Below, in pieces: positions 43,508-45,135 of a stretch of DNA of 51,509 bases. The notes under the pieces were generated by a model, which was given only the letters and a program-made list of their open reading frames with translations, did no database searches and was not told the DNA's origin. The first letter of the stretch is position 1. The number at the start of each line of letters is the position of its first letter. A program made the translations under genes and the position numbers. Source of the DNA: a virus. Its lineage: Duplodnaviria > Caudoviricetes. Where the stretch lies: the IMG/VR virus record IMGVR_UViG_3300028590_000551, positions 1-51,509 of that record; one strand, given 5' to 3'.

Positions 43508-43535
43508 CTAGTACATAATAGGCATTATGCGAAAT
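43508..43535. other. attR: hybrid dif-like Xer site (degenerate phage arm, intact XerC-type arm)
   Basis: CTAGTACATAA-TAGGCA-TTATGCGAAAT. Confidence 0.85.
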
Positions 43536-43776
43536 GGCTGGTTGGGCGAGATGAGGGTCGGCAGGGATTCGTGAGAAAAACAGCCGAATCGGCTCTAACA
43601 CCATGATTCAACGAGGAAACACCCCTCGACGTCAGGCAGTGCGTGGATTACAGACTTAGGCTTGATCGAACCAGAAGCCGCGTGACCCAGGCATTTCTGA
43701 AGTGCTGCTTAGGCACGCGTGCCCTTCTTGAATATTGGATTCAAGAGTTTCCACGCTCCTGACCCAACGGAAACCC

Positions 43777-43935
43777 TCAAGAAGGCTCCGACCATCGCCT
43801 GATCCATTGCAGTAGTTCCTCGTGCGGGATCGTACGTCCAGCGTCGACGTCGGCGATACCTTCGCGGGTCCGCCGATCCTTCTCTTCCTCGGTCAATTCC
43901 GGAAGGAGTGCTAGCAGTTTGTCTTCAGGGCTCAT
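43777..43935 (-). CDS. 52-aa antitoxin-like peptide (C-terminal part of RHH/ParD-type antitoxins)
   Basis: Translated by hand: MSPEDKLLALLPELTEEEKDRRTREGIADVDAGRTIPHEELLQWIRRWSEPS. Confidence 0.5.
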   Translation of the reverse strand: MSPEDKLLALLPELTEEEKDRRTREGIADVDAGRTIPHEELLQWIRRWSEPS

Positions 43936-43952
43936 AGGCCGATGAGCTGCGC

Positions 43953-44714
43953 TCAAGTTGGCTTGATGCTCGTGAACATGGGCACGATCTGGGGATCATC
44001 CAGGCCCGCCGGCAAAGGCTGCGATACGTCGTGGACCGCCAAGTCGATGATGACGTCCAAATCTGAGCATAAGGGCTGTATGGCGGTGGTCACCAGACGA
44101 GCCGCCCGCTCGGCGAAAGCCAGGTCGACCACCAGCCAGATCAACAGACCGGGAGGCTGTTCGACGCCCCCCGACGAGTGAGTTTCCAGGAGATACGCCG
44201 ACGAGACGAAGTCGGCGTGTTCAAGGCTGCCGCTGATGGCCGGAGCGAGCCAAGCCGGTGCGGCTTGGGCAGGTCTCACCGCGAACTCCGCCGGCTCCAG
44301 CCGTTCCACCCTGGCCAGAAAGCCCGTATCCAACAATGCCGCAACCTCTTCCGGGTAGAGGACAACGCCGTCGTCGTTGGGATTGAGCATCAACGTAGCG
44401 CCGCGAGTACCGGTTAGCAGCTCACGGCCTGGAACTCCCAGAATTCTGACAGCAGCCGAACTGGCCGCCTGCGCCTTGTCGAGCGAGGTAAAGAAGGGGA
44501 TCGCATCGAAACCGTCAGGATGGCGGAACTGGACCAGCCGCAGTGTCCGCGCGTCATCCGAGACGGGCGCATGCACGTACACGATCGCATCCATCAGTCG
44601 CTTGAAGAATGCGCGTTCCTCGGCTGCGCTGTCGCGGGCCCGTTCAAAGGAAGCCTCCAGCGCTGCCTCTGCGGACGTAGTCCCTCTTGCACGCGGCCTG
44701 CTCGGTTGCTTCAT
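43953..44714 (-). CDS. SseB-family protein
   Basis: IPFFTS, L.LNP....V.L.PEEV..LL; C-terminal V..AYL domain. Confidence 0.7.
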   Translation of the reverse strand: MKQPSRPRARGTTSAEAALEASFERARDSAAEERAFFKRLMDAIVYVHAPVSDDARTLRLVQFRHPDGFDAIPFFTSLDKAQAASSAAVRILGVPGRELLTGTRGATLMLNPNDDGVVLYPEEVAALLDTGFLARVERLEPAEFAVRPAQAAPAWLAPAISGSLEHADFVSSAYLLETHSSGGVEQPPGLLIWLVVDLAFAERAARLVTTAIQPLCSDLDVIIDLAVHDVSQPLPAGLDDPQIVPMFTSIKPT

Positions 44715-44716
44715 AG

Positions 44717-44989
44717 TCAGATGCGATGAGGGCCAAGCGGGTATCCGGAGAACCAATCCGCCTCGATCTCGCTGCTCAGGTAGGGTCGTACGAAGGCCGA
44801 CTGGGTCAGCGCTCGCAGCCGCTCTTCGTGCTCAGCAATCGCCTCGATGTCGCTGACGGTTGGATAGTGCCGCAGCAGTCGATATGCCTCTTGCCGCACC
44901 TCTTTGGGCACGGCTTGGCTGGCCGCTAGCTGCCGGAGGAACGCGCCCGCCTGCAACACATTGCGGGTGCGCTCAGATGGCGTCGTCAT
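44717..44989 (-). CDS. BPSL0761-family protein
   Basis: MT.P.ERTR.V.....FL..L....VP..VR..A..LLRHYP. Confidence 0.7.
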   Translation of the reverse strand: MTTPSERTRNVLQAGAFLRQLAASQAVPKEVRQEAYRLLRHYPTVSDIEAIAEHEERLRALTQSAFVRPYLSSEIEADWFSGYPLGPHRI

Positions 44990-45095
44990 GACATCAAGAA
45001 TGGCTGGAACTAAGGAATGCTTAGCTTATCGCGTCTGTGGCCGGCTAGCGCACGGTGCAACTACAGACCTTGCGATTTCCAAATTAATCCGGTAT

Positions 45096-45108
45096 AATCA
45101 ATAACTTA
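45096..45108 (+). promoter_or_regulatory. IHF consensus site abutting the dif-like site
   Basis: AATCAATAACTTA fits WATCAANNNNTTR. Confidence 0.55.
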
Positions 45109-45135
45109 CTTCGCATAACGTCGCTTATGTAAAAC
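45108..45135 (+). other. Second dif-like XerC/XerD site, inverted relative to the phage target
   Basis: ACTTCGCATAA-CGTCGC-TTATGTAAAAC. Confidence 0.8.

Follow-up and report, generated by a model that had tools for sequence, protein, structure and literature searches.

The window analysed here is the complete 51,509-nt sequence of the viral record IMGVR_UViG_3300028590_000551, and the part of it under study is the interval from 43508 to 45135, where three small genes lie between two inversely oriented sites of the kind recombined by XerC and XerD. Starting at the left-hand end, the window opens within the 3′ end of a host glucokinase gene (glk), continues through a tailed prophage and reaches the first of the two sites (site 1), which from its sequence is the chromosomal dif. 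After a further 17 nt of native chromosome it passes into one end of a Tn3-family heavy-metal resistance transposon, which contains the three genes and the second site (site 2) and extends rightwards beyond the end of the window. The original prediction was of a chromosomal dif module belonging to a Xer-based cassette array next to glk, with the phage exploiting one of its sites. The interval is probably better described as a juxtaposition, in which a host dif with its prophage lies against the end of a Tn3-family transposon, and this end carries a captured native cassette with a recombining site 2.

The two Xer-type sites and the genes between them

A relaxed dif pattern matches the whole 51.5-kb window at two positions, 43513–43533 on the minus strand and 45110–45130 on the plus strand. 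The number expected by chance is 0.02, and none of 100 shuffled sequences reached two. Site 1 (43508–43535, minus strand, so that the arms are in the order D–C on the plus strand) reads ATTTCGCATAA TGCCTA TTATGTACTAG on its own strand, divided 11-6-11 into XerC arm, central region and XerD arm. Site 2 (45108–45135, plus strand, with the order C–D) reads ACTTCGCATAA CGTCGC TTATGTAAAAC in the same division. The two sites are inverted, with their XerC-type arms pointing inwards, and to this extent the original prediction was correct; both are where they had been placed, their central regions differ, and they are genuine Xer-type sites. An arrangement of this kind, with inverted XerC/XerD-type sites at either end of a segment, is found in the window and at nine native loci of related genomes. 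Since the central regions of dif and site 2 are equal at just two of six positions, the two should not recombine productively and the 1.6-kb segment between them should not flip. No inversion between the sites was found; all eight native copies and all the transposon copies checked have their genes in the same order with respect to the second site.

The XerC arm of site 2 is abutted by a consensus motif for integration host factor (IHF; 45096–45108, plus strand), where AATCAATAACTTA is an exact match of WATCAANNNNTTR. It is one of three matches to the consensus in the window, for which 0.17 are expected. A sigma-70-like promoter with the arrangement TTGCGA-17-TATAAT (45070–45098, plus strand) is directed outwards over site 2. 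It matches at 10 of 12 positions, is the sole promoter-like match between 43400 and 45400, and ends 10 nt before the site. The second IHF-like motif that had been noted, with one mismatch, is also present (43596–43608, minus strand). It is located at the inner edge of the transposon repeat, a position that suggests an accessory site of the transposon end rather than of dif.

All three open reading frames (ORFs) between the sites are on the minus strand. The smallest (43777–43956) encodes 59 aa, or 52 aa from the ATG at 43935. It has no match in Pfam (even at E of 5), NCBIfam or PADLOC, so that its earlier label of antitoxin-like is not verified. There are 23 clusters of homologues, one of which carries the source name 'predicted transcriptional regulator', and a 34-aa core is conserved among the native copies. 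The assignments of the other two genes stand. The central one (43953–44756; 253 aa from the ATG at 44714) matches the SseB family PF07179 (1.4e-13, 51.5 bits against a cut-off of 21). Its score against the equivalog model NF008624 (2.1e-16) is far below the cut-off, and thus it is a member of the family and not an SseB orthologue. The third gene (44717–44989, 90 aa) belongs to the BPSL0761 family (NF041728, 2.4e-25, 88.3 bits against a cut-off of 35). A search for the function of the cargo gave no PADLOC match and no solved structural relatives, and the corresponding clusters in a protein atlas are unnamed or named for BPSL0761, one of them being mostly viral. Of the three clusters nearest to the BPSL0761-family protein, one (score 0.94) has 84% viral members, which hints at a phage-related role for the cargo.

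Two similar small palindromes occur in this part of the window, one at the phage end beside the right-hand attachment site (43491–43507, CTAAGG..CCTTAG) and the other upstream of the BPSL0761-family gene (45010–45024, CTAAGG..CTTAG). The latter is kept in the native copy of L009 (related loci are denoted by L numbers, and genomes by G numbers).

The chromosomal dif and its prophage

On the sequence evidence site 1 is the genuine dif of the terminus, in a chromosome resembling those of Pseudoxanthomonas. It is downstream of glk, whose last 49 codons (3–152, plus strand) lie on its XerD-arm side. The 49-aa fragment matches PF02685 at 1.7e-07, and its full-length homologue in L036 does so at 1.7e-81; glk directly adjoins dif in L003, L009, L037, L056, L059, L065 and L066. 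The arm pattern is matched in 61 of 71 Pseudoxanthomonas genomes, mostly once and often right after glk, with the same XerC arm and spacer. In a sample of the family it is matched in 117 of 161 genomes, nearly all of them once (the tally includes one genome flagged as unpublished, an ordinary single match). The position of dif relative to the terminus was examined in G003 and applies to the window by homology. There dif is at 2,379,277, between the last positive (2.33–2.35 Mb) and the first negative (2.40–2.42 Mb) samples of GC skew, and the polarity of GGGNAGGG switches at the same place. All three relatives examined encode a XerD homologue above the curated cut-off, together with a second close XerD paralogue (295–299 bits) that is probably XerC.

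The tailed prophage (~43 kb; 190–43512, plus strand) is integrated in dif. A 15-nt core, ACATAATAGGCATTA, is found at 175–189 and repeated at 43513–43527, and its presence at both ends of the prophage bears out the view that the D–C site was the target of the phage. The left-hand attachment site attL (165–200) is host XerD arm and spacer fused to phage DNA, and site 1 is at the same time attR. In site 1 the XerC arm, the spacer TGCCTA and the inner XerD arm are derived from the host, and the outer XerD arm from the phage. The host-derived halves of attL and attR combine into a full site, the outer XerD arm of which resembles that of uninterrupted relatives. Beside attR is a gene for a tyrosine integrase of XerC/XerD type (42463–43437, minus strand) with PF00589 (1e-20), an N-terminal SAM-like domain and a match to the integrase family phrog_1. 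Its scores of 159 and 152 bits against the XerC and XerD models are far under the respective cut-offs, 335 and 330. Of two distant viral relatives of the integrase, one (45% identical) is encoded by a gene that has a dif spacer with a XerD-arm half-site ~150 nt upstream. The phage would have entered dif by means of its own Xer-like integrase, replacing the outer part of the XerD arm. The arm that it supplied is a look-alike, and consequently one complete dif-like site remains.

The PHROGs matches of the prophage include portal, tape measure, tail fibre J, DNA methyltransferases, a clamp-like protein and integrases, and it also has SSB and a C5-methylase. A serine recombinase/invertase and two DNA methyltransferases are encoded at 28657–29856, 244–1200 and 40057–42027 (all plus strand).

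Other material is found around dif in relatives. In L036 (G405) and L038 (G366) glk and dif are separated by ~1.6 kb of small genes, one of them Arc/RHH-like, and in L038 the outer XerD arm of dif is altered. Integration seems to have taken place repeatedly on the XerD-arm side of dif, as for the prophage of the window. In a member of the family from another genus (G155:C1:2149040-2151307) two dif-type sites with the spacers CACATC and TGCATA follow each other in the same orientation at a distance of 2.2 kb, the arrangement that Xer-mediated integration of an element at dif should leave. Native copper ATPase genes are directly beside dif in some genomes (L061 in G200, and L015 in G004), and multicopper-oxidase genes are found upstream of glk; the terminus region of the genus is rich in copper genes even where the transposon is absent.

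A transposon end beside dif and its native counterpart

Relatives of the interval were traced from the SseB-family protein (15 genome loci) and from the DNA of the interval (38 Xanthomonas plasmids matched). In all 12 loci read at the left boundary the match to the window sets in at 43553, where the shared DNA begins GAGGGTCGGCAGGGATTCGTGAG... (the first 7 nt are altered in L001), and these loci have eleven different, unrelated left flanks. This base is the start of a 47-bp terminal inverted repeat, 'IR-B', of the transposon (43553–43599, plus strand). The 17 nt that separate dif from the repeat (43536–43552) are native chromosome; they are identical at 17/17 positions to the sequence following dif in L059 (G427), which continues there as native DNA. 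Because the repeat is preceded by native post-dif sequence and belongs to a family associated with target duplications, 43553 can be taken as the end of a Tn3-family element inserted in native DNA.

The other end of the element can be followed in the complete X. citri plasmid pXAS220, with which the window is collinear from 43553 onwards (94.5%). The outer 15 nt of the repeat recur there in inverted orientation 56.5 kb away, adjoining genes for a 997-aa Tn3 transposase (PF01526 2.9e-146, DUF4158) and a 441-aa tyrosine recombinase, and the 5-bp target duplication AGGTA flanks both ends. This partner was detected as a 15-nt outer match by short-word BLAST; a 30-nt search allowing up to three mismatches found no inverted partner repeat in two plasmids. 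Genome searches showed that closely similar 47-nt repeats form a family. Its members include a 39.9-kb copy in S. maltophilia (G005) with the duplication TTCAA, a 100-kb copy inside a copB-like gene (G003) with TGGCT, and a copy inside a P-type ATPase gene (G004) with GTGGT. One repeat pair, in G002, has no 5-bp duplication. The three genes and site 2 form the first 1.6 kb of the transposon, and this segment is 94–99.7% identical in Xanthomonas plasmids, Stenotrophomonas and Castellaniella. A copper/heavy-metal transposon of 40–100 kb would therefore on this reading have inserted 17 bp past dif by ordinary transposition.

The right-hand 'Y' segment of the transposon (45136–51509), identified by its Pfam matches, contains genes for a YkgJ-type protein (45318–45920, plus strand) and a copper P-type ATPase (48212–50644, minus strand), as well as for a tautomerase, a Zn-dehydrogenase, an HMA protein and a CueR-type regulator. 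A pair of 27-nt inverted repeats (50678–50768, 93% complementary), which we take to resemble MerR/CueR-type operator boxes, lies in the interval between the copper ATPase gene and the following one.

Three other events were considered and rejected. A break at 44986 in Castellaniella is the insertion of an insertion sequence rather than an event at a site, the pCuR-type deletion that joins 43902 to 50988 has ordinary GG microhomology at its junction, and the idea that homologous recombination put the segment in the place of a native cassette is inconsistent with a repeat that abuts native post-dif sequence.

The chromosomal copies of the transposon are found near dif. Where site 2 and dif are on the same contig they are separated by 1.6 kb (the window), 1.9, 3.5, 5.5, 9.9, 26, 40 and 59 kb, and a Stenotrophomonas copy with a hybrid site ends 18 kb from dif, so that 9/9 resolvable copies (the window, G002, G003, G004, G005, G366, G405, G429 and G436) are close to it; four further copies have site 2 and dif on different contigs and are outside the nine. 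The distance between the transposon and dif is 17 bp in the window and 0.4–58 kb in the other genomes. From the coordinates, the end bearing site 2 faces dif in 9/9 resolvable chromosomal copies, on whichever side of dif the copy lies. Flanks and duplications differ between copies, and thus several of the insertions are independent. A bias towards the terminus has been described for the Tn3-family elements Tn1721 and Tn917 and was attributed to the sliding clamp (PMC11417375, in the part consulted). By analogy this bias would be the default explanation of the proximity to dif, though not of the orientation towards it.

The origin of the segment is suggested by the chromosomes of Pseudoxanthomonas. 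Most genomes of the genus that bear the transposon have exactly two perfect sites, dif and the CGTCGC site (some have a third), and in a sample of 401 genomes of the family three contain the CGTCGC site. Nine of the 71 genomes of the genus have a second site whose central region is different (CATTCC, CATCCG, CACTCC or CGTCGG). In every case it lies on the XerC side of dif, at a distance of 1.5–2.1 kb and inverted, giving the order D–C, cargo, C–D; none of 161 family genomes has such a native inverted pair. The layout that had been predicted, with dif, three genes and an inverted second site next to glk, thus exists in relatives. Seven of the nine native pairs enclose SseB and BPSL0761 homologues, usually with the small ORF, in the same order and with 61–87% protein identity, which indicates that the transposon carries a captured copy. 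In G423 and G427 a different cargo lies between the sites, and the same cargo occurs in G426, where a second site was not detected; G003 has a native copy of the genes and no second site. In L065 (G445) a degenerate second site (spacer CATCCG, XerC arm ~7/11) is back to back with dif with no cargo, and this may be an emptied cassette.

Second-type sites have features of their own. Their conserved parts are the XerC arm and the inner XerD arm (TTATGT); the central region and outer XerD arm vary. Each of these sites is preceded by a promoter-like pair of hexamers, and an exact IHF motif touches the XerC arm in 20 of 24 of them, compared with 0 of 22 dif-type sites. At the native loci ~80–100 nt after dif are conserved regardless of the cargo, and the variable DNA starts beyond; dif itself is for this reason not a cassette boundary. 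In a tree of SseB-family proteins the transposon copies are near-identical across genera, and the native copies are on long branches in the same clade (support 100/100). The segment in the transposon is read, from these comparisons of sequence, as a captured copy of the native cassette. The terminal segment would have been acquired from a native Pseudoxanthomonas cassette together with its inverted second site.

It could be argued that the interval is what it first resembled, a dif module resident in the chromosome, which Xer recombination at both sites mobilises and which is part of an array next to glk. The inverted sites with XerC arms inwards are indeed arranged as in the native pairs, sites of this kind enclose an alternative cargo in G423 and G427, and G445 has its degenerate second site back to back with dif. 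Such a module should be bounded at site 1, however, and the shared DNA starts at the 43553 repeat behind eleven different flanks, with native sequence in between. Only the right-hand boundary of the moving unit coincides with a Xer site. The comparison downstream of glk therefore confirms one half of what had been proposed, with synteny breakpoints coinciding with site 2 and not with site 1. The conserved 80–100 nt after dif and the mismatch of the central regions at four of six positions also speak against such a module. As for the array, there is at most one extra site near dif per genome, plus one on the transposon, and the whole 219-kb plasmid pXAS220 contains one site. A resident module is accordingly improbable, and the juxtaposition of host dif and transposon end is preferred.

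It is possible, and is suggested tentatively, that the second Xer site of Pseudoxanthomonas, with its IHF motif and outward promoter, is a docking point for a single cassette, insulated from dif by its central region, and that the copy captured by the transposon, which is spread worldwide, lets lineages of the element swap ends and cargo by host Xer recombination. It may also tether the element to dif, towards which the end with the site is turned in all nine resolvable copies.

A KfrA-like DNA-binding gene and a tyrosine recombinase gene recur beside the cassettes (L095–L097, in G411, G330 and G421; L065, L009, L001 and L016). In L095–L097 this pair is ~7 kb past the native second site. It is followed by a large ATPase gene and defence-like genes, and a family of islands may use the XerC side of dif. 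No second copy of the native second site was found at the far end of the adjoining island, where no repeat of at least 12 nt occurs within ~19 kb in three genomes.

Probable recombination at site 2 and relation to known systems

The evidence that site 2 is a recombination junction comes from comparison of transposon copies. Between the window and L015 identity is complete over the 600 nt that precede site 2 and continues through position 25 of the site. Position 26 differs, as do 3 of the next 14 nt, and beyond this there is no similarity, the right side of L015 having a DsbA-like gene and another ATPase. To the left there are two alleles, a and b, which differ in 84 of the 1566 columns from the repeat to the XerC arm and are unmixed. 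All four combinations of left allele and right segment occur: left a with the YkgJ-type segment (the window and L001), left a with the DsbA-type segment (L015), left b with the DsbA-type (L009 and L060) and left b with the YkgJ-type (L010). Six metagenome contigs with the exact core show the same pairings. Since alleles a and b are identical from 15 nt left of site 2, and position 26 of the site always tracks the right segment, the exchange is confined to 40 nt. A homologous crossover would land there ~2.6% of the time. The suggestion that site 2 is a junction is upheld by these combinations.

A second kind of event points to the same place. Five loci (four in Stenotrophomonas and one in X. 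nasturtii) share a deletion of the block from YkgJ to the ATPase, in which the last base of the XerC arm, at its border with the spacer, is joined to DNA at the start of the ATPase; pXAS220 has parent-like sequence on both sides of this junction. By analogy with dif, XerC cuts at the border between arm and spacer, and such a junction is the product expected of a XerC-only exchange fixed by replication.

From these sequence comparisons it can be inferred that site 2 is a working site-specific recombination site, for which host XerC/XerD would most likely be the enzyme. Copies of site 2 with the same central region on different replicons would recombine, swapping the transposon end and its three-gene segment between lineages, and the hybrids would then transpose as a unit.

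The recombinase might alternatively be that of a mobile element, either the 441-aa protein of the transposon or its relatives in the islands, acting at site 2 and the native second sites in place of host XerC/XerD. The transposon does encode a recombinase with a Xer-like domain layout beside tnpA, relatives that are 32–34% identical lie ~7 kb past the native second site in three of five genomes (two of them with an internal stop), and the phage of the window illustrates that an integrase of this type from a mobile element can act on a dif core. However, one of the five genomes gave no relative with the query used and another has it on a different contig, the gene in the transposon is ~50 kb from site 2, and the XerC arm of the second site equals the host dif arm at 9–10 of 11 positions, with the same asymmetry between XerC and XerD arms. 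An enzyme of the element itself is on balance rather unlikely.

Nor is site 2 easily explained as purely regulatory, that is, as an operator with IHF for the outward promoter or the BPSL0761 operon, the alleles being reshuffled by homologous recombination. This would account for the strong promoter-like site that ends 10 nt before it, for the IHF motif that abuts 20 of 24 sites, and for the many plasmids that have lost site 2 and kept the transposon. Against it, the left alleles are unmixed over all 1566 columns, a homologous crossover would seldom fall within the last 40 nt, and the two right segments have no homology beyond 14 nt. Site 2 moreover has retained the asymmetry between XerC and XerD arms that is seen in dif, and the second site is conserved with cargo other than the three genes. 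A regulatory function with no site-specific recombination is very improbable.

A number of observations weigh against the preferred interpretation, in which host XerC/XerD recombine site 2 on a transposon that landed beside dif. The enzyme is assigned solely from the similarity of the arms to those of dif, and as the outer XerD arm is variable in second-type sites the binding of XerD may be weak. A single reciprocal exchange would suffice for the four allele combinations, so that the independent events may number no more than one, plus the deletion. The right partner in the deletion has no recognisable Xer site; its left arm would match at ~5/11 and its central region would be 7 nt. Just nine of the 38 matching plasmids cover at least 80% of the query, and 11 others among the matches listed keep only 43552–43902; as many plasmid copies are without site 2, it is dispensable for the transposon. 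The backbone of the SseB tree is unresolved at 11 of 17 inner forks, which leaves the nesting of the transposon copies within the native ones undecided, and the direction of capture consequently rests on branch lengths and conservation of the locus. The window itself is a virus record with one end of the transposon, so that its transposition is deduced from other copies and the single-copy status of site 1 from the genomes of relatives.

If the interpretation is correct, a copper transposon of Xanthomonas plasmids, Stenotrophomonas and Pseudoxanthomonas carries a dif-like point of crossover between lineages, and site 2 is a route for the reshuffling of metal-resistance cargo, of which there is no description in the literature searched. 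The native second Xer-type site with its IHF motif and promoter would be a tractable system outside Acinetobacter for the tolerance and the function of extra sites in the terminus. Should the docking and capture of cassettes also be true, the shuffling of Xer modules reaches beyond Acinetobacter and is tied to Tn3 transposition and metal resistance in plant-associated bacteria. More generally, the appearance of a resident Xer cassette can arise from a transposon landing beside dif, and calls of cassettes from pairs of sites require comparison of the flanks.

Within the limited coverage of the literature search no paper joins dif-like sites, Tn3 and copper, and dif or Xer in Pseudoxanthomonas appears only in an incidental metagenome study. 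Four kinds of known system can be compared with the locus, for the first, second and fourth of which the comparison is with the parts of the cited sources that were consulted. The dif (pdif) modules of Acinetobacter occur in Rep_3 plasmids, and chromosomal ones in Acinetobacter sp. M10 (PMC12907356, PMC13141974); a cargo flanked by XerC sites that face inwards is there termed a 'C module'. The present locus shares with them inverted pairs of 28-bp XerC/XerD-type sites, a small cargo, differing central regions and flanks reshuffled at the sites. It differs in having one extra site per genome instead of an array, in that the native partner is the main terminus dif, and in that the XerC arm, not the XerD arm, is well conserved. 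In addition, the site has an IHF motif and an outward promoter directly beside it, the host is a genus of the Lysobacteraceae, and the other boundary of the mobile copy is a transposon repeat and not a second Xer site.

Tn3-family copper and heavy-metal transposons of Xanthomonas plasmids have been described as pCuR, pLH201.1 and pT4p2 types (PMC8453159, PMC5755412), and in these plasmids the clusters for copper and arsenic are reported to be surrounded by Tn3-like transposons (PMC8453159). The element in the window resembles them in its Tn3 transposase, long terminal repeats, 5-bp duplications and 94.5% collinearity, and differs in that it is chromosomal and 17 bp from dif; the passages on these transposons do not mention a dif-like site.

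The prophage, like the integrative mobile elements exploiting Xer (IMEX; for example the filamentous phages of Xanthomonas), sits in dif and re-forms one dif-like site. Unlike them it is a tailed phage of 43 kb that encodes a Xer-like integrase of its own and a serine recombinase, and because of that integrase it is not an IMEX in the strict sense of reliance on host XerCD. Finally, the 'dif hunters' of the IS1202 family (PMC10132070) are also transposable elements located a few bases from the XerC side of dif. Those are 5 bp from the XerC arm and have a TnsB-like transposase, whereas the element described here belongs to the Tn3 family and lies 17 bp away.

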